The notes beneath the pieces are model-generated. The model was given only the letters and a program-made list of their open reading frames with translations, made no database searches and was not told the DNA's origin. This document shows positions 14,706 through 56,567 of a stretch of 64,000 bases of DNA, in pieces; within the stretch, counting starts at the first letter, position 1, and the number at the start of each line of letters is the position of its first letter. Source of the stretch: Eledone cirrhosa (lineage: Eukaryota); NCBI GenBank assembly GCA_964016885.1, contig OZ024740.1:335916001-335980000 (forward strand), given 5' to 3'. A program made the translations under genes and the position numbers.

Positions 14706-14749
14706 CTATATAATTGTTCCAGATCAACTAATAATCAACGATTTTGTCA

Positions 14750-16530
14750 GTACCATCGACCACAGCTGTCCTGTGGTTACAACACTATCTCTATTGTCTC
14801 TACCATCGACCACAGCTGTCCTGTGGTTACAACACTATCTCTATTGTCTCTACCATCGACCACAGCTATCCTGTGATTACAACACTATCTCTAGTGCCTC
14901 TACCATCGACCACAGCTATCCTGTGATTACAACACTATCTCTATTGTCTCTACCATCGACCACAGCTGTCATGTGATTACAACACTATCTCTATTGTCTC
15001 TACCATCGACCACAGCTATCCTGTGATTACAACACTATCTCTAGTGCCTCTACCATCGACCACAGCTATCCTGTGATTACAACACTATCTCTATTGTCTC
15101 TACCATTGACCACAGCTGTCCTGTGGTTACAACACTATCTCTATTGTCTCTACCATCGACCACAGCTATCCTGTGATTACAACACTATCTCTAGTGCCTC
15201 TACCATCGACCACAGCTATCCTGTGATTACAACACTATCTCTATTGTCTCTACCATTGACCACAGCTGTCCTGTGGTTACAACACTATCTATATTGCCTC
15301 TACCATCGACCACAGCTGTCCTGTGATTACAACACTATCTCTATTGTCTCTACCATCGACCACAGCTATCCTGTGATTACAACACTATCTCTATTGCCTC
15401 TACCATCGACCACAGCTGTCCTGTGATTACAACACTATCTCTATTGTCTCTACCATCGACCACAGCTGTCCTGTGATTACAACACTATCTCTATTGTCTC
15501 TACCATCGACCACAGCTGTCCTGTGATTACAACACTATCTCTATTGTCTCTACCATCGACCACAGCTGTCCTGTGATTACAACACTATCTCTATTGTCTC
15601 TACCATCGACCACAGCTGTCCTGTGATTACAACACTATCTCTATTGTCTCTACCATCGACCACAGCTGTCCTGTGATTACAACACTATCTCTATTGTCTC
15701 TACCATCGACCACAGCTGTCCTAGATTACAACACTATCTCTATTGTCTCTACCATCGACCACAGCTGTCCTGTGATTACAACACTATCTCTATTGTCTCT
15801 ACCATCGACCACAGCTGTCCTGTGATTACAACACTATCTCTATTGTCTCTACCATTGACCACAGCTGTCCTAGATTACAACACTATCTCTATTGTCTCTA
15901 CCATCGACCACAGCTGTCCTGTGATTACAACACTATCTCTATTGTCTCTACCATCGACCACAGCTGTCCTGTGATTACAACACTATCTCTATTGTCTCTA
16001 CCATCGACCACAGCTGTCCTGTGATTACAACACTATCTCTATTGTCTCTACCATCGACCACAGCTGTCCTGTGATTACAACACTATCTCTATTGTCTCTA
16101 CCATCGACCACAGCTGTCCTGTGATTACAACACTATCTCTATTGTCTCTACCATCGACCACAGCTGTCCTGTGATTACAACACTATCTCTATTGTCTCTA
16201 CCATCGACCACAGCTGTCCTGTGATTACAACACTATCTCTATTGTCCCTACCATCGACCACAGCTGTCCTGTGGTTACAACACTATCTCTATTGTCTCTA
16301 CCATCGACCACAGCTGTCCTGTGGTTACAACACTATCTCTATTGTCTCTACCATCGACCGCAGCTGGCCTGTGATCTCTATTGTCTCTACCATCGACGAC
16401 AGTTATCCTGTGATTACAACACTATCTCTATTGTCTCTACCATCGACCACAGCTATCCTGTGGTTAAAACACTATCTCTATTGTCTCTACCATCGATCAC
16501 AGCTATCATGTGATTTCAGCACCATCTCTA
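14750..16530. repeat. 50-bp minisatellite, about 35 copies
   Basis: Unit TACCATCGACCACAGCTGTCCTGTGATTACAACACTATCTCTATTGTCTC with few variants. Confidence 0.97.
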
Positions 16531-17194
16531 TTTTGTCTGATAGACGACAAAATGTCCAACTACCATGTTCCATTATTCACTTAATAAATTTCTTGTAGTC
16601 AGATACTTACACATTCACTGACCTATTGTGAAACTCCCCACCCATTCATTCACTTAATACCAATGCTATTGTTTACCTACACATTTATATAACTTCGATT
16701 AAATTATGAGCTGTTTCTATGCAGATATGTATTTATAGTATAATATATATTTAGCTGCTTAGTGCACAATTTAATATTTAATTGAATTAGCTACCGGCGT
16801 TACCGCTAACAGCCCGCATCGCTGGCATTGCCATGTTTGTGGGCTTATAGTGCGATTAGTTACACATTACGTTGTGAATTATGAAGAATGTGCACAACCT
16901 CTGAGGATGGTTCCAACTAGAAGTGAAATATGTCAAACAATATATTGTTTTCAATCTACGGGAAAATACATAAATGGACATATTTACATGATTACATGAA
17001 ACAATGTATTTGTTTGTTGATTTCCATAGCTTCATAGTTATATCGTGTACTAATTCTGTACAGTTATGTTTTTATGATATATTTCGGCAGTTCAGTACAT
17101 AATTATATATATAATTGTAATAGTATTAGCAAACCTAAGATTTTGGAACAGAATGAAAACGCAGTCAGGATTGGATCTTGCCTATCACTGTAAC

Positions 17195-26229: not shown

Positions 26230-26371
26230 ATACTTTGGGAGGGTCATGTTGCCAATAAGAAACACACGCACCAGTTGCTTTCACTTCAATTTAATAAATT
26301 AAATTGAAGTGAAAGCAACTGGTGCGTGTGTTTCTTATTGGCAACATGACCCTCCCAAAGTATAACAATAT
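26222..26371. repeat. Perfect palindrome with 74-bp arms and 2-nt spacer in (TA)n; same family as 54024-54427
   Basis: 26222-26295 is the exact reverse complement of 26298-26371. CATGACCCTCCCAAAGTATAACAATAT and downstream sequence match 54340-54427. Confidence 0.92.
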
Positions 26372-26425
26372 CGGTTTCAACACACGATTTCAGATAAAGA
26401 ATCTTGCTAAACAAATTCAGAAACG

Positions 26426-26469
<44 letters not shown>

Positions 26470-26478
26470 TCATATATA

Positions 26479-26553
<75 letters not shown>

Positions 26554-26565
26554 GTATATATACAC

Positions 26566-26655
<90 letters not shown>

Positions 26656-26954
26656 CCCGGGTTCAATCTGGGCTAACCACAGTAAGTAAGGTACTCAATA
26701 CATAGTAGAGTATACATTTTTAATATGGAAATGACTTCTACAGAACTAAAAGTGTTTCATCTGAAATGAAATCATATATATTATGCTGTTGATTATGTTT
26801 ATTAAAATATTATTTTAACAGCATAATACACGAGATATTATAAACATGCATTTATAAAGACATATTCTATGAAATATGAAAATCAAAGCATATCAGGAAT
26901 ATCTATCTATCTATCTATCTATCTGCTTAACCACCTACTGTCTATTTGTCTTTC

Positions 26955-30514: not shown

Positions 30515-31135
30515 AGGCCGCCTGTGAGACGTGGGACCGGCTGGGACTTAGCCCAGTAGACTTCCCTCCTCCTTCTCCCCCTGTTGGACTCTTTCGGCCT
30601 CCACCCGCTTTCCTGTCGCCACAGTGCTGTCCGCATTCCACGCCATGCTGCCCTCAACGAGGTCATTAAGCATGGCTTGGACGCTGCAGGCTTCCCTTCT
30701 CAGCTCGAGCCGGTGGGCTGGATCGAGGGGTTGGCAAAAGGCCAGATGGCATGACCATCTTCCCGTTCCGCGGTGGCAAACCCCTCGTCTGGGATGCCAC
30801 TTGCACCGACACTTTCTGCAGCCGCAACCTGGTGCAGTCTGCGACTGACCCAGGTTCTGCTGCACGTCAGGCTGAGGGGGCCAAACTCCTCAAGTACCGG
30901 TCGCTCTCCGACAGTTTTGCGGTCGTACCCCTGGCAGTGGAGACTTCTGGTGTCCTCGGCCCCAGGGCTACCTCCTTACTCACCACCATAGGCGCTGAGC
31001 TGGCCAGCCGCAGGTTTGAGCCCCGCGAGTTGGACTGGCTTTTCCAGCGCATCTCCCTTGCCGTCCTCCGGGGAAATGCCTTCTCCATTCTGTCCGCCGG
31101 GGCTGTGGGTGTGCCCCATCGCGTACCGTTGTAAT
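30515..31135 (+). mobile_element. 5'-truncated CRE-like non-LTR retrotransposon: zinc-knuckle remnant plus restriction-like endonuclease, one frameshift
   Basis: GC-rich island translating LHPLSCRHSAVRIPRHAALNEVIK...LEPVG, frameshift near 30717, then DRGVGKRPDGMTIFPFRGGKPLVWDATC...KLLKY...VPLAVETSGVLG...QRISLAVLRGNA. Short minus-strand relatives at ~23680-23810 and ~44885-45035. Confidence 0.82.
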
Positions 31136-35512: not shown

Positions 35513-35909
35513 ATCAGTTTGACAAGCGCACCTCAGCGTGAAAGGTCTTTCTAAAAACGAAACAATACCTCCTACGTTAACCAAGAACTCCTAATACCTA
35601 ACCAACAACCAACAACTTAATTTATATAAAAAAATTTCTTTTAAAAAAAATTATTCTAATCCGGAAAAAAATTCTTTTTGGATTTTGTGAAGAAAATAAA
35701 TTTGTTGAAAGCACAAGTTAAGCCATTTTTTTCTTCCCCCCCTGTCTTAATATATATATATATACATATATATATTTATATATACATACATATACATATA
35801 TATGTAAATATATATATGTATGTATATATATGCATACATATATATATTTACATATATATATATGCATACATATATATATATACATATATATATGCATATA
35901 TATATATGC

Positions 35910-35944
<35 letters not shown>

Positions 35945-35954
<10 letters not shown>

Positions 35955-38797
35955 AAAACACACAGATACATGCGGACACACACATATATACATGAATGCA
36001 TCCGCACCCAACTGTGAGTTAAGGGTGCCAACTTCACCGATGTTGCTCAATGAATGACTGGGACAGACCAATTCAGTTTGAACCAGACTGAACCAGTATC
36101 AGAGTTAAAAATACATTATGAAGAGAGAAGAAACATTTAGATATAATTAGTAATAAAATGTATCATACCTAAACTGTTCCTAAATTCCTCGACTACGTAG
36201 TTTCGTGGCATAAACAAAAACAATATATCAAAGATATAGAGTCCTTGCGAGGTCTGCCAACTTATCAAGAGGATACCTCATTTTACTAGTCTCAAGAACG
36301 CGTCTACACGACGTGAGAAAGAATCCCAAAAGGCGGAGGGGGAGATAGTCACGCGATATAACGGTCGAGAAACAGAGCTAAGCCTCTTATAACCACGAAG
36401 AAAATACCACGGAGGCGGAGGGGGCATTCATATCGAGGCCGTAGAAGAGGTAGTGAAGAAGGCGAGAAGTATGAGTAATGGAAGCTTTCCAGTTGTCCCC
36501 ACACTTCAAAGATTGCTCGACCAGAGGGAGTTATTAATATATTTAAAAACACACAGATACATGCGGACACACACATATATACATGAATGCATCCGCACCC
36601 AACTGTGAGTTAAGGGTGCCAACTTCACCGATGTTGCTCAATGAATGACTGGGACAGACCAATTCAGTTTGAACCAGACTGAACCAGTATCAGAGTTAAA
36701 AATACATTATGAAGAGAGAAGAAACATTTAGATATAATTAGTAATAAAATGTATCATACCTAAACTGTTCCTAAATTCCTCGACTACGTAGTTTCGTGGC
36801 ATAAACAAAAACAATATATCAAAGATATAGAGTCCTTGCGAGGTCTGCCAACTTATCAAGAGGATACCTCGTTTTACTAGTCTCAAGAACGCGTCTACAC
36901 GACGTGAGAAAGAATCCCAAAAGGCGGAGGGGGAGATAGTTACGCGATATAACGGTCGAGAAACAGAGCTAAGCCTCTTATAACCACGAAGAAAATACCA
37001 CGGAGGCGGAGGGGGCATTCATATCGAGGCCGTAGAAGAGGTAGTGAAGAAGGCGAGAAGTATGAGTAATGGAAGCTTTCCAGTTGTCCCCACACTTCAA
37101 AGATTGCTCGACCAGAGGGAGTTATTAATATATTTAAAAACACACAGATACATGCGGACACACACATATATACATGAATGCATCCGCACCCAACTGTGAG
37201 TTAAGGGTGCCAACTTCACCGATGTTGCTCAATGAATGACTGGGACAGACCAATTCAGTTTGAACCAGACTGAACCAGTATCAGAGTTAAAAATACATTA
37301 TGAAGAGAGAAGAAACATTTAGATATAATTAGTAATAAAATGTATCATACCTAAACTGTTCCTAAATTCCTCGACTACGTAGTTTCGTGGCATAAACAAA
37401 AACAATATATCAAAGATATAGAGTCCTTGCGAGGTCTGCCAACTTATCAAGAGGATACCTCATTTTACTAGTCTCAAGAACGCGTCTACACGACGTGAGA
37501 AAGAATCCCAAAAGGCGGAGGGGGAGATAGTCACGCGATATAACGGTCGAGAAACAGAGCTAAGCCTCTTATAACCACGAAGAAAATACCACGGAGGCGG
37601 AGGGGGCATTCATATCGAGGCCGTAGAAGAGGTAGTGAAGAAGGCGAGAAGTATGAGTAATGGAAGCTTTCCAGTTGTCCCCACACTTCAAAGATTGCTC
37701 GACCAGAGGGAGTTATTAATATATTTAAAAACACACAGATACATGCGGACACACACATATATACATGAATGCATCCGCACCCAACTGTGAGTTAAGGGTG
37801 CCAACTTCACCGATGTTGCTCAATGAATGACTGGGACAGACCAATTCAGTTTGAACCAGACTGAACCAGTATCAGAGTTAAAAATACATTATGAAGAGAG
37901 AAGAAACATTTAGATATAATTAGTAATAAAATGTATCATACCTAAACTGTTCCTAAATTCCTCGACTACGTAGTTTCGTGGCATAAACAAAAACAATATA
38001 TCAAAGATATAGAGTCCTTGCGAGGTCTGCCAACTTATCAAGAGGATACCTCATTTTACTAGTCTCAAGAACGCGTCTACACGACGTGAGAAAGAATCCC
38101 AAAAGGCGGAGGGGGAGATAGTCACGCGATATAACGGTCGAGAAACAGAGCTAAGCCTCTTATAACCACGAAGAAAATACCACGGAGGCGGAGGGGGCAT
38201 TCATATCGAGGCCGTAGAAGAGGTAGTGAAGAAGGCGAGAAGTATGAGTAATGGAAGCTTTCCAGTTGTCCCCACACTTCAAAGATTGCTCGACCAGAGG
38301 GAGTTATTAATATATTTAAAAACACACAGATACATGCGGACACACACATATATACATGAATGCATCCGCACCCAACTGTGAGTTAAGGGTGCCAACTTCA
38401 CCGATGTTGCTCAATGAATGACTGGGACAGACCAATTCAGTTTGAACCAGACTGAACCAGTATCAGAGTTAAAAATACATTATGAAGAGAGAAGAAACAT
38501 TTAGATATAATTAGTAATAAAATGTATCATACCTAAACTGTTCCTAAATTCCTCGACTACGTAGTTTCGTGGCATAAACAAAAACAATATATCAAAGATA
38601 TAGAGTCCTTGCGAGGTCTGCCAACTTATCAAGAGGATACCTCATTTTACTAGTCTCAAGAACGCGTCTACACGACGTGAGAAAGAATCCCAAAAGGCGG
38701 AGGGGGAGATAGTCACGCGATATAACGGTCGAGAAACAGAGCTAAGCCTCTTATAACCACGAAGAAAATACCACGGAGGCGGAGGGGGCATTCATAT
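35945..38797 (-). mobile_element. Left tandem array (~4.8 x 591 bp) of a hammerhead-containing retrozyme/Penelope-like unit
   Basis: Exact 591-bp period (identical ORFs at 36349, 36940, 37531, 38122). Only two variant positions seen (36871, 36941). Begins at the edge of a (TA)n tract. Confidence 0.9.
36186..36273 (-). ncRNA. Type I hammerhead ribozyme, U3-A8 variant; identical copies at 36777-36864, 37368-37455, 37959-38046, 38550-38637
   Basis: Exact reverse complement of the motif at 38804-38891. Confidence 0.85.
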
Positions 38798-41321
38798 GAG
38801 GTATCCTCTTGATAAGTTGGCAGACCTCGCAAGGACTCTATATCTTTGATATATTGTTTTTGTTTATGCCACGAAACTACGTAGTCGAGGAATTTAGGAA
38901 CAGTTTAGGTATGATACATTTTATTACTAATTATATCTAAATGTTTCTTCTCTCTTCATAATGTATTTTTAACTCTGATACTGGTTCAGTCTGGTTCAAA
39001 CTGAATTGGTCTGTCCCAGTCATTCATTGAGCAACATCGGTGAAGTTGGCACCCTTAACTCACAGTTGGGTGCGGATGCATTCATGTATATATGTGTGTG
39101 TCCGCATGTATCTGTGTGTTTTTAAATATATTAATAACTCCCTCTGGTCGAGCAATCTTTGAAGTGTGGGGACAACTGGAAAGCTTCCATTACTCATACT
39201 TCTCGCCTTCTTCACTACCTCTTCTACGGCCTCGATATGAATGCCCCCTCCGCCTCCGTGGTATTTTCTTCGTGGTTATAAGAGGCTTAGCTCTGTTTCT
39301 CGACCGTTATATCGCGTGACTATCTCCCCCTCCGCCTTTTGGGATTCTTTCTCACGTCGTGTAGACGCGTTCTTGAGACTAGTAAAATGAGGTATCCTCT
39401 TGATAAGTTGGCAGACCTCGCAAGGACTCTATATCTTTGATATATTGTTTTTGTTTATGCCACGAAACTACGTAGTCGAGGAATTTAGGAACAGTTTAGG
39501 TATGATACATTTTATTACTAATTATATCTAAATGTTTCTTCTCTCTTCATAATGTATTTTTAACTCTGATACTGGTTCAGTCTGGTTCAAACTGAATTGG
39601 TCTGTCCCAGTCATTCATTGAGCAACATCGGTGAAGTTGGCACCCTTAACTCACAGTTGGGTGCGGATGCATTCATGTATATATGTGTGTGTCCGCATGT
39701 ATCTGTGTGTTTTTAAATATATTAATAACTCCCTCTGGTCGAGCAATCTTTGAAGTGTGGGGACAACTGGAAAGCTTCCATTACTCATACTTCTCGCCTT
39801 CTTCACTACCTCTTCTACGGCCTCGATATGAATGCCCCCTCCGCCTCCGTGGTATTTTCTTCGTGGTTATAAGAGGCTTAGCTCTGTTTCTCGACCGTTA
39901 TATCGCGTGACTATCTCCCCCTCCGCCTTTTGGGATTCTTTCTCACGTCGTGTAGACGCGTTCTTGAGACTAGTAAAATGAGGTATCCTCTTGATAAGTT
40001 GGCAGACCTCGCAAGGACTCTATATCTTTGATATATTGTTTTTGTTTATGCCACGAAACTACGTAGTCGAGGAATTTAGGAACAGTTTAGGTATGATACA
40101 TTTTATTACTAATTATATCTAAATGTTTCTTCTCTCTTCATAATGTATTTTTAACTCTGATACTGGTTCAGTCTGGTTCAAACTGAATTGGTCTGTCCCA
40201 GTCATTCATTGAGCAACATCGGTGAAGTTGGCACCCTTAACTCACAGTTGGGTGCGGATGCATTCATGTATATATGTGTGTGTCCGCATGTATCTGTGTG
40301 TTTTTAAATATATTAATAACTCCCTCTGGTCGAGCAATCTTTGAAGTGTGGGGACAACTGGAAAGCTTCCATTACTCATACTTCTCGCCTTCTTCACTAC
40401 CTCTTCTACGGCCTCGATATGAATGCCCCCTCCGCCTCCGTGGTATTTTCTTCGTGGTTATAAGAGGCTTAGCTCTGTTTCTCGACCGTTATATCGCGTG
40501 ACTATCTCCCCCTCCGCCTTTTGGGATTCTTTCTCACGTCGTGTAGACGCGTTCTTGAGACTAGTAAAATGAGGTATCCTCTTGATAAGTTGGCAGACCT
40601 CGCAAGGACTCTATATCTTTGATATATTGTTTTTGTTTATGCCACGAAACTACGTAGTCGAGGAATTTAGGAACAGTTTAGGTATGATACATTTTATTAC
40701 TAATTATATCTAAATGTTTCTTCTCTCTTCATAATGTATTTTTAACTCTGATACTGGTTCAGTCTGGTTCAAACTGAATTGGTCTGTCCCAGTCATTCAT
40801 TGAGCAACATCGGTGAAGTTGGCACCCTTAACTCACAGTTGGGTGCGGATGCATTCATGTATATATGTGTGTGTCCGCATGTATCTGTGTGTTTTTAAAT
40901 ATATTAATAACTCCCTCTGGTCGAGCAATCTTTGAAGTGTGGGGACAACTGGAAAGCTTCCATTACTCATACTTCTCGCCTTCTTCACTACCTCTTCTAC
41001 GGCCTCGATATGAATGCCCCCTCCGCCTCCGTGGTATTTTCTTCGTGGTTATAAGAGGCTTAGCTCTGTTTCTCGACCGTTATATCGCGTGACTATCTCC
41101 CCCTCCGCCTTTTGGGATTCTTTCTCACGTCGTGTAGACGCGTTCTTGAGACTAGTAAAATGAGGTATCCTCTTGATAAGTTGGCAGACCTCGCAAGGAC
41201 TCTATATCTTTGATATATTGTTTTTGTTTATGCCACGAAACTACGTAGTCGAGGAATTTAGGAACAGTTTAGGTATGATACATTTTATTACTAATTATAT
41301 CTAAATGTTTCTTCTCTCTTC

Positions 41322-41326
<5 letters not shown>
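38796..41326 (+). mobile_element. Right tandem array (~4.3 x 591 bp) of the same unit in the opposite orientation
   Basis: Reverse complement of 36115-38645; ends at a (TA)n tract starting at 41327. Confidence 0.9.
38804..38891 (+). ncRNA. Type I hammerhead ribozyme, U3-A8 variant; identical copies at 39395-39482, 39986-40073, 40577-40664, 41168-41255
   Basis: Stem I TCCTC/GAGGA, core TTGATAA and GAAA, stem II G(T)TGGCA/TGCCAC, palindromic stem III ACTACGTAGT, GUC cleavage predicted after 38886. Confidence 0.85.
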
Positions 41327-41360
<34 letters not shown>

Positions 41361-41694: not shown

Positions 41695-41845
41695 GCAGTA
41701 TCGGTAGAGGGTCGGACGCCATGCTTTCCAGCATAGTTACGTCCCTTTACGATCTGAGTTCAAATCCCGCCGAGGGGTCGATAAAATAAAGTACCAGTAA
41801 TGCACTGAGTAATTGCTGGCCTTGTGCCTTAAGTAGAAACAGTTA
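41695..41845 (+). mobile_element. SINE, main family, internally deleted
   Basis: Box B and tail present; GTTAACTTTGCCTTTCATCCTTAC segment missing. Confidence 0.8.
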
Positions 41846-41939
41846 TCGCCAAAATTCTTTACTACGTTGTCCCATTAATAACTGAAACCAAATTACTGAA
41901 AGATCTGAGTCATTTTAATTTTATTGTTCATTTGCTTTG

Positions 41940-54023: not shown

Positions 54024-54425
54024 TAGTTATACTTTGAGAGGTTCATGCTGCCAAGTGGGTTAGTTTAATAACCGGATGGTTGTTTAGTTGAGTATCTAAG
54101 CTCTTTCGTCACACATGCTGTGACCTATTCAGTGAAAAAACCAGATGGTGTAAGTCAGAACAAAGGAGAAACACAAAGTATTAGCAAAAGTAGTCACTGA
54201 GGAAGTCACAGAATGTGTGACGAAAGAGCTTAGACAATCAACAACTAAATAACTATCAGGTTATCAAACTAACCGACTGGGAAATTATAATAATAAATTG
54301 AAGCGAAACCCAACAGGCGTATGTGTTTTTTATGGGCAGCATGACCCTCCTAAAGTATAACAATATGTTTCAATTCAACATACGTTTTCAGATAGAAAAT
54401 CATGTAAAACAAATACAAAACCGAA

Positions 54426-54427
<2 letters not shown>
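54024..54427. mobile_element. Inverted Penelope-like terminal-repeat fragment in (TA)n with a hammerhead-like motif in each arm
   Basis: Plus 54193-54235: CTGAGGA-A-GTCACA-GAATG-TGTGAC-GAAA-GAGCTT. Mirror copy at 54094-54134 on the minus strand. (TA)n on both sides. Confidence 0.62.
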
Positions 54428-54484
<57 letters not shown>

Positions 54485-54589
54485 TGTGAATGTATGCGTA
54501 TGTATATATATAAGCATATATATTTATATACCCTTATGTATCTACATACATGTATATACGTGTGTGTGTGTGTGTGTCTGTGTGTGTGT

Positions 54590-54644
<55 letters not shown>

Positions 54645-56567
54645 AGGTAAACAGAAATAACAACACAATCGGTACAGTATATGGAAGGAATATATTAGGT
54701 TAACACTTGAAATAGCTGGAAGAGGGTCCTAACGTTTCGGCTGCTAGTCTTTCATCGGAAGAAAGAATGAGAAATTAGAAAGATAGAAGGGATGGGCAAG
54801 GCGAAATCGGAAAAAAGGTTTTAAGAGGAAAATAACAGGTCCATTCATGTTCCCATCTCTTGGAAATCTGTTGATGCTGGCGTTTTGTATATGATATTCG
54901 TTTTTATAAAAGTGGATGATGGAGCTTGTCTACCTCAAATGGAAAAGAATGTCTTGTATATAGAGATATACGTGTGCGCGTGTGTGTGTGTCATTATACG
55001 TCCGTATGAAGTTATTTACATACAGAGAGTGAATGGGAAGGCAGAGAAAGAGCGAAAGAAAGAAAAAAGAAAGGGGGTAAGGAAGAAAGAAAGAAAGAAA
55101 AGAGAAGCACAACAATATTAAGTGTAATTCTACAGAGCTATACGGCAAGTTTTCTATTGTGCAATGCATAATTGTGTCTCGTGGGATATCATAGATACAA
55201 TGTTTGTATTCCGATGAGGGTATGCTCTATTCCGGTACGAAATGAGCGCATATCATATATACAGCATCAGAATAAAATCCTTATACAGTTTGAAATTTTA
55301 ATAACTTTAGTTCTATGCGCTGGAACTAATTTGTGTCGAATATTTAGAAGTCTAATGCATTGTCAAAGCTTGACCGAAAGTCGTTCATCATATTTTAAAT
55401 TAATATCTTTCTTTTATGGGACATGTAAAGACTACACTTTATGAGACTCAATTTCGTTTTATAGATGACTAATGTGATTCAGAGTATAAAGGAGATGCAA
55501 CTGCAAAACTTATTTCGAAAACTTTAAAATCGCAGTTGTTTTGGTTTTGTTGTGATTTTCTAATCTTTTTCTTGGAAATTTTGAGTTTTTACGAGACTAG
55601 GCTGCTAACCCGACACCAAATCTACACCTGTTTTCCTTCGTGCTTGGAACTAAAATGGACAATACGGAATTTTAATCGTGAAATTATTCCTGCGGTGAGA
55701 AGAAAAATCATTTAGGTTAATGAATATTCATTTCAAAAGGAACAATTGAGATAATCTTCCTCTTCTTCTTCGTCCACTTATTTATGAGAGGGTCGTTGGG
55801 GCAGAGTCCTCATATACTCCTTCCAGTCGGTCCTCTCCAATCGTCTCCAAATGATCAGGCTGGATCCTCCACCGTGACCAGCCAAGCTAATGGATGTTAT
55901 CCAACCATCTTGCTTGGAGTCTGCCCCTGGGTCTACTGCCGGCTAGTTTTGCCCTTAATATCTGAGAGAATATTGAATATTGACGAAAACTTAGATAACG
56001 ATATATAAGAATAGGAGTGAATATGATCGTTGATAGTTAGGTGTTGGTTCAGCTTTATTCAACCTTTTCAGCGATGCAGAGTCCAACAAATAATTGGTTT
56101 TGTCGTAGGAAACTATATTTTATCATGAAGTGAATTTATTGATGATGTTGTAGCTGTTATTGCTGCAGCTGATCCTGATGTTGTTGCTATTTTTAATGAT
56201 GTTTCTTCTGTGATGTTCTTTCTGATATCGTAGTTGATGCTATTTCTGTTGTTGTTTGATTCCTAGTTTTTTTTTGGGGGGGGGGGGGGGGTAATTTTTC
56301 TCCTTGTGTAGTTATGGCCGGAGTAGTTACTCTTGCTGTTGCTTTTGTTCTTCAACCCCACATCAACATAAATTAGGAAAACCTATGATCAAAAGCATTC
56401 CTATTATGACCATCCTTCTTTTCTGTATTGTTTTATTTTAGCTATATTACTTACCAACAAACACAAGCTTCTGGGCCTCAGACGTGTTGTAGGTATAGTG
56501 GCCTTTGTAATGGTGGTGGTTCCTAGTTGTTGGGTGTCGTGGTGGCAGTGAGGGTGATGCTGGTGGA

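Follow-up and report, generated by a model that had tools for sequence, protein, structure and literature searches.

A head-to-head insertion of a young retrozyme family in the octopus Eledone cirrhosa and its Penelope-like integration

Described systems and the palindromic locus

The non-LTR (long terminal repeat) retrozymes of animals consist, in the accessible text of PMC7229834 and 10.64898/2026.07.22.740005, of non-coding tandem units with one type I hammerhead each; they co-exist with Penelope-like elements (PLEs), and their circles have been proposed as templates for reverse transcriptase (RT). That such circles are copied into tandem DNA is hypothesized in PMC7229834; 10.64898/2026.07.22.740005 puts local amplification in its place. 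PLEs are accompanied by a head-to-head inverted, 5'-truncated copy, often carry a tail at one end only, lie in microsatellite targets and show microhomology at 5' junctions (accessible text of PMC3846280 and PMC8557442); the origin of their tandem and inverted insertions and of the tail is called open by Craig 2021 (PMC8557442). I consider here a palindrome that resembles both. It lies in a window of 64,000 nt (positions 335,916,001 to 335,980,000 of contig OZ024740.1, assembly GCA_964016885.1, forward strand) from the octopus Eledone cirrhosa, and all window positions below count from its first letter. The palindrome belongs to a young family of non-LTR retrozymes and is one of its thousands of insertions in this genome. 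The element integrates like a PLE, and is neither a product of L1-type twin priming nor a satellite.

The element (35946-41326) is made of two divergent arrays of a unit with a computed period of 591 bp, as against the 170-400 nt or so reported for invertebrate non-LTR retrozymes in the same two retrozyme papers, and is bordered by (TA)n at both outer ends. Over 2,531 bp, positions 36115-38645 match the reverse complement of 38796-41326 at all but 2 sites, a length and identity that exclude a chance origin. The flanks of the locus are mutually unrelated, apart from one 58-bp repeat match. Ten hammerhead motifs at 591-bp spacing run across both arms, and no stop-to-stop frame of at least 120 amino acids overlaps 35946-41326, so the element is non-coding.

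Much of what the original prediction said of the locus holds: a palindrome with arms of about 2.5 kb, ribozyme sense pointing outward in both arrays (five hammerhead motifs per strand, all outward), outer ends that merge into (TA)n on both sides, a junction some 7 nt before the first plus-strand hammerhead (which begins at 38805), and two variants, 36871 and 36941, private to one and the same unit and likely to have arisen after insertion. The inner region agrees in part. The microhomology of the inner junction comes down to a 2-nt exact overlap, AT, the left arm reaching to 38797 and the right starting at 38796, with an imperfect GAGG match after it. The 150-bp spacer is unpaired as described but is no separate sequence; it is the inner end of the left arm, cut off at a different unit position from the right arm. 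The left array begins near 35946 and not at 36115, the additional 169 bp being the tail between the two ends E1 and E2 defined below, and these ends are not peculiar to the locus but are the two standard ends of the family.

A scan against Rfam gave 0 matches at the gathering threshold, and it is by its core motif and pairing that the hammerhead is recognized: across 10 aligned copies (two subfamilies) the core does not vary, and pairs form in 99.1% of stem cells as against 33-59% when the alignment is slid. The monomer is well folded relative to shuffles (z -5.6), and the isolated hammerhead fold does not exceed shuffles in stability (z -1.08). A U3-A8 core has been published as a variant of PLE hammerheads, and weak palindromic stems III are said to work as dimers (accessible text of PMC4209133). 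Two of 179 young arms (p about 0.04) and three arms of an older paralog begin exactly at the predicted cut, which lends weak support to cleavage in vivo. The family combines tandem hammerhead units, absence of coding capacity, dispersed mobile copies and co-existing PLEs, the testable marks of a non-LTR retrozyme; by analogy with published retrozymes its RNA would be self-cleaving and circular.

Two fixed ends, one on each arm

To describe the family I use three sets of loci. Set A is the window locus and the 39 loci of best identity, from an own-genome similarity search that gave 670 candidates, 40 of them scored, with near-identical copies on many chromosomes. Set B comprises 80 of 118 regions in the first 75 Mb of contig 1, picked by end pattern, and set C 20 loci picked by one allele; neither A nor C was chosen on ends. 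L076 and L121 were left out of the count of inverted insertions, as they are joined to, or are, insertions of the older paralog, and L081, a local duplication that includes the flanks, was counted once. At L081 (4225-8078) the entire inverted insertion is tandemly duplicated with its flanks at 2,554 bp.

Arms terminate at one of two sites, E1 about 80 nt and E2 about 245 nt past the predicted cut, with a 165-nt tail between them. In sets A and C together, 95 of 97 arm ends conform (65/66 and 30/31), and 86 of the 95 are followed by a dinucleotide repeat. Inverted insertions carry one E1 arm and one E2 arm in 75 of 79 cases (25/26 in A, 40/42 in B, 10/11 in C), as compared to the 42-50% expected if the ends were chosen independently. 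None of the 79 has two like ends; the remaining four (L050, L077, L094, L231) have one non-standard end. The same rule is seen from coordinates alone, in 22 of 22 outward pairs, a sample that overlaps set B. Solitary arms terminate at either site, and 2 of 51 carry a stub of the other end. Counted genome-wide by exact pattern, E1 ends number at least 2,581 and E2 ends 1,086, with 0 hits for the reversed-pattern controls.

This is the known Penelope pattern of an inverted copy plus a tail on one end, here with a tail of 165 nt: the insertions are inverted, 5'-truncated, tailed at one end and set in microsatellites, where (TA)n would mask any duplication or deletion of the target site. They differ from the PLEs of PMC3846280 and PMC8557442, as far as the accessible text goes, in that the element is non-autonomous, the tail measures 165 rather than 30-40 nt, both arms can be multi-unit, and the tail sits on exactly one arm in 75/79 where in PLEs it is called optional. 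In vitro, the purified Poseidon PLE of Anolis, predicted to be a dimer, cleaves AT-rich DNA on both strands and extends both, starting at two internal positions of the RNA by which the tail is delimited; its first start lies about 85 nt after the hammerhead cut, much like the 80 nt or so found here (accessible text of PMC11167929). Unlike Poseidon, the present family pairs an E1 with an E2 end almost without exception, and its template has the behaviour of a monomer that was copied over and over.

The end pattern alters the earlier account at several points. That account expected end points permuted around the unit, with fixed ends pointing to satellite expansion. The search of other loci that it called for does find the tail-out arrangement, as the commonest form in the family, with outer ends that are fixed and not permuted. 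Free microhomology priming anywhere on a circle is rejected because the ends are fixed, and satellite expansion is not favoured by them because the two arms use one site each. Nor do the insertions look like rare events of the L1 kind, tail-out being both the commonest form of the family and a published PLE feature. In L1 twin priming, the second target strand primes on the RNA at a variable internal position, giving an inverted 5' part joined by microhomology, and the two segments stem from one pass without overlapping; here the position of the second priming does not vary, poly(A) is absent, and the arms repeatedly copy the same sequence (36 of 62 overrun).

Relatives share the architecture. 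An older paralogous retrozyme of about 594 bp (L200-L229; 1,828 candidates) has the same hammerhead core and the same two ends, and aligns to the 591-bp unit with 451 identities, 124 mismatches and 35 gaps. Its ends, judged by eye at 28 distinct loci picked by a query spanning E1-E2, fall into 19 E1/E2, 1 E2/E2, 3 E2/other and 5 solitary. Matches of 72-82% that had been considered as an autonomous partner belong to this paralog and were rejected in that role. Two ends are also found in four other hammerhead families within the flanks. A second retrozyme-like family, with a period of about 467 bp, a different hammerhead and inverted arrays, adjoins copies of the 591-bp family at L037:4637-6668 and L062:4736-4885.

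The genome also contains RT and GIY-YIG frames with hammerheads in the pseudo-LTR (pLTR), so autonomous PLEs co-exist with the retrozyme. One of them, family D, has both domains in a 938-codon frame and has ends of its own at about +82 and +145, in five E1/E2 pairs and one E1/E1. A near full-length copy (L180:1697-7235; G000 C1 near 145.87 Mb) shows two fixed ends and TA targets, and its pLTR contains a hammerhead with the U3-A8 core. The zinc-finger motif before its GIY-YIG domain is presumably Neptune-like. What family D shares with the retrozyme is the U3-A8 core, the E1 spacing (+82) and short end motifs, nothing longer, and on this geometry and these motifs it is a candidate for the partner enzyme. 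Locus L085, considered as a chimera of the retrozyme and family D, proved to be a solitary arm that abuts a separate small D insertion.

The template and the competing explanations

Variants within the arrays bear on how many templates were copied. Over 119 loci there are 330 locus-wide variant events and 179 partial ones, only 5 of the latter (at 3 loci) in more than one unit. At sites covered by both arms in 79 loci, 57 variants occur in all units, 75 in a single unit and 0 are specific to an arm. Both arms overrun the start site of the other in 36 of 62 inverted insertions, and because of this a single pass on a linear monomer is ruled out. Arm lengths are continuous and close to an exponential distribution: among 114 arms the median is 542 bp, 50 are longer than one unit and 3 longer than four, so that the window locus is unusually long yet an ordinary family member. 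The lengths of paired arms are uncorrelated, and inner ends are spread round the unit. Each arm holds sequence absent from the other in 7 of 62 insertions, and the longer arm can be either one (38 vs 23). The template is probably one monomeric and circular RNA, to judge from these patterns. The earlier claim that both strands primed and that the complementary DNA (cDNA) went 4-5 times round a circle finds support across the family for the two-strand priming and the repeated copying of a monomer, the ends, variants and junctions all speaking for it; the circle stays a matter of interpretation. At one locus (L135:4050-5524), two variants lie in one pass of each arm and are absent from the outer pass of the E1 arm, which fits a dimeric template or a template switch.

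Of the 62 junctions, 18 contain extra bases (some of this being alignment noise), and among the 44 free of filler 24 have at least 2 nt of microhomology, as against an expected 15%. Seven are near-palindromic, with inner ends within 13 nt, where I calculate about 3 expected; these may be fold-backs. The 7.5-unit inverted insertion L109 (G000:C1:50595296-50601296) has at its junction 59 bp of filler made of repeated 11-mers, as repeated re-priming would give.

The locus-wide changes have a distinctive spectrum. Read in ribozyme sense at 64 loci of five young haplogroups, the distinct ones comprise 26 A>G, 4 T>C and 11 others, while single-unit changes at the 64 loci include 5 A>G and 18 T>C (Fisher p=2.8e-6 against locus-wide). 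With set C added, minus the site by which it was selected, A>G and T>C number 31 and 5 locus-wide, 5 and 25 in single units. Since errors of the RT arise per pass, and mutation of DNA strikes single units and is mostly strand-symmetric, the changes are most simply placed on the template RNA. Locus-wide A>G is likely to be A-to-I editing by ADAR, as the spectrum suggests. Octopods edit their RNA heavily, and an ADAR2 exon in the host genome is 95% identical to ADAR2 of Octopus vulgaris. The only locus-wide change of the window locus is A>G at unit position 357. The variant was at one point thought private to the locus, an idea dropped on finding 135 units genome-wide with G, against 2,847 with A; it occurs on six marker backbones and is never mixed within a locus (20 set C loci). 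A>G at positions 277, 340 and 537 is found on 3-4 haplogroups each, and L109 carries seven A>G changes in all of its 7-8 copies. Arrays at 357G loci are longer than others (2.3 vs 1.75 units, p=0.04), a difference of which I make no claim, length showing no overall correlation.

I consider it probable that a Penelope-like RT/GIY-YIG enzyme made the insertion, both target strands priming on one monomeric, probably circular, ADAR-edited RNA that was copied repeatedly, about five times per end here. A source array would be transcribed, its hammerheads would release monomers, and a host ligase would close them into circles, as proposed for published retrozymes and with weak support from the genome. 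Some adenosines would be edited to inosine, in keeping with the variant spectrum. The enzyme would nick (TA)n on both strands, one of which would prime at E1 and the other at E2, as the fixed ends and their one-of-each distribution suggest. Both cDNAs would run past the start of the other and round the monomer with strand displacement, stop at random, and be joined head to head through 1-5 nt of microhomology or filler bases. More tentatively, and with slightly less than even confidence, I propose that an asymmetric PLE dimer loads one RNA at two fixed sites, that both subunits roll on the circle, that ADAR edits are written into every unit, and that the family owes most of its new sequence to editing.

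Other routes could yield inverted tandem arrays. One, which I judge unlikely, keeps the two-site, two-strand priming but does without a rolling circle at this locus: the template would be a linear multimer, transcribed from a homogeneous source array and left uncleaved, or else a pair of identical RNAs held by an asymmetric dimer. The anole PLE favoured unprocessed RNA in vitro (accessible text of PMC11167929), the variants of L135 sit in one pass per arm as from a dimeric template, and a combination of changes (242G/357G/382T/395G) is inherited by 5 of 20 set C loci, so that a source array can already carry such changes. On such a template, however, edits and errors would be specific to units, whereas the A>G excess is exclusively locus-wide and partial variants reach several units in just 5 of 179 cases; five arms begin exactly at the predicted cut; and if each arm had its own RNA, drawn from a pool with many haplotypes, arm-specific variants would sometimes be expected, of which there are 0 beside 57 shared. 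That a target-primed cDNA folds back on itself to make the inverted copy, the endonuclease trimming it at the second site, has been published for palindromic PLE junctions and the tail (accessible text of Arkhipova 2013 and Craig 2021) and agrees with the seven near-palindromic junctions. I regard it as very unlikely for the family, given that 55 of 62 junctions are not palindromic, that each arm can hold private sequence and either can be the longer, and that solitary arms end at E1 as well as at E2.

Still less credible to me is a short inverted insertion later expanded by unequal crossover, the process that Li, Clavereau and Pollet 2026 prefer for retrozyme arrays (accessible text of 10.64898/2026.07.22.740005). 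It would likewise spread template variants to all units, and at L094 and L133 variants occupy adjacent passes, as a local duplication leaves them. But crossover needs an initial tandem and leaves the one-of-each rule unexplained; arm lengths are continuous and inner ends spread, the arrays are small and dispersed with intact E1/E2 ends, and partial variants are multi-unit in 5 cases against 174 in a single unit. The ragged ends and the variants in subsets of units by which a satellite is recognized are not the pattern found. I give almost no credence to an artefact of assembly or of long-read fold-back at the locus. A palindrome with near-perfect arms of 2.5 kb is the typical shape of such an artefact, and among the contigs listed from read runs none bridges the junction; these contigs are collapsed and offer no evidence either way. 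Against this, the flanks differ, the arms differ by the 169-bp tail and the 150-bp inner part, and both ends are standard for the family. The stronger argument is recurrence, the same architecture being present with other junctions at 74 further loci, 75 in all.

Several results count against Penelope-like copying of an edited circle, besides the contigs just mentioned and the inherited combination of changes. The E2/E2 insertion of the older paralog and the E1/E1 insertion of family D mean that the rule is not absolute in relatives, and none of the 50 GIY-YIG loci examined, out of 10,596 candidates, shares a long sequence with the unit. Poseidon, in the accessible text of PMC11167929, used uncleaved RNA, showed no strand difference in start site and has its sites 30-40 nt apart, against 165 here. 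Covariation in the hammerhead stems does not rise above shuffles (266/500; 10 sequences), and three loci do have partial variants in several units. As to editing, A>G sites show no enrichment for paired positions over the remaining A's (p=0.25), their depletion of 5'-G is slight (2/28 vs 28/133), and edit load does not correlate with array length (rho 0.19, p=0.37, n=24); transcription-linked mutation in the source locus may be another origin of the changes.

The architecture and the circle hypothesis are already in print. Inverted arms, fixed ends and edit-like variants are not described in the accessible text of PMC7229834 or 10.64898/2026.07.22.740005 (there, "inverted" is absent from the former and appears a single time, inside a reference, in the latter), and I found no published case of a cephalopod non-LTR retrozyme. 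Nor did the open literature, subscription papers (e.g. Arkhipova 2006) and supplements (Fig. S9 of PMC7229834, Fig. S2 of PMC11167929) being outside its scope, yield a count of one-of-each ends or edit-like template barcodes in retrozyme arrays. The family's insertions, young and numbering in the thousands, carry internal barcodes by which the rival models can be told apart, and the family supplies defined start sites, a target and candidate enzymes. If the A>G changes are editing, RNA edits enter an animal germline genome by way of a mobile element, and if the asymmetric dimer does roll on one circle, octopus retrozyme arrays would be single-molecule records of RNA editing.

Features of the locus and other observations

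The features of the locus are collected in Table 1.

Table 1. Positions in the window of the parts of the insertion and of its repeated motifs.
Feature	Position	Strand	Remark
Left target, compound (TA)n microsatellite	35750..35945	.	
Left arm, 4.8 tandem 591-bp retrozyme units, sense minus; outer (3') end at E2 (unit position ~245 after predicted cut)	35946..38797	-	
Tail, E1-to-E2 segment, left arm only, 169 bp	35946..36114	-	same on one arm in 75/79 inverted insertions
Unpaired inner part of left arm (150 bp)	38646..38795	-	
Head-to-head junction, 2-nt exact microhomology	38796..38797	.	
Right arm, 4.3 tandem units, sense plus; outer (3') end at E1 (unit position ~77-80)	38796..41326	+	
Right target, (TA)n	41327..41359	.	
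Two substitutions private to one left-arm unit	36871 and 36941	-	
Type I hammerhead motif with a U3-A8 core, a long stem II and a single base pair of stem III under a palindromic loop	38805..38890	+	repeats at 39396, 39987, 40578, 41169
Predicted cuts, plus strand	before 38887, 39478, 40069, 40660, 41251	+	
Same hammerhead motif, minus strand	38551..38636; repeats 37960-38045, 37369-37454, 36778-36863, 36187-36272	-	
Predicted hairpin just upstream of E1, one example, in every unit	39487..39542	+	prediction
Predicted hairpin just upstream of E2, one example, in every unit	39648..39710	+	prediction
G at unit position 357, where most of the family has A; found in each of the 9 copies across both arms; possible fossil of A-to-I editing	39834..39834 (one example)	+	

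A 577-nt contig from another organism (B; run X4) matches the unit at 37141-37717 with 2 differences, and the left flank is almost without depth there. Eleven organisms share 27-71% of the words, which could reflect close relatives, recent horizontal spread or contamination.

Elsewhere in the window, minus-strand frames at 26286-26705 and 54302-54703 resemble, by eye, the 3' end of another hammerhead-bearing PLE family (family B, which also occurs in the flanks) and end in (TA)n, and a 154-codon frame at 30670-31134 resembles, again by eye, the C-terminal part of a non-LTR retrotransposon protein. A short repeat of very high copy number, similar to short interspersed elements (SINE-like), lies at 41695-41846, 350 bp to the right of the element, with a depth in the millions in run X1. 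Positions 14744-16532 hold a tandem array of 36 copies of a 50-bp unit with 94% matches.

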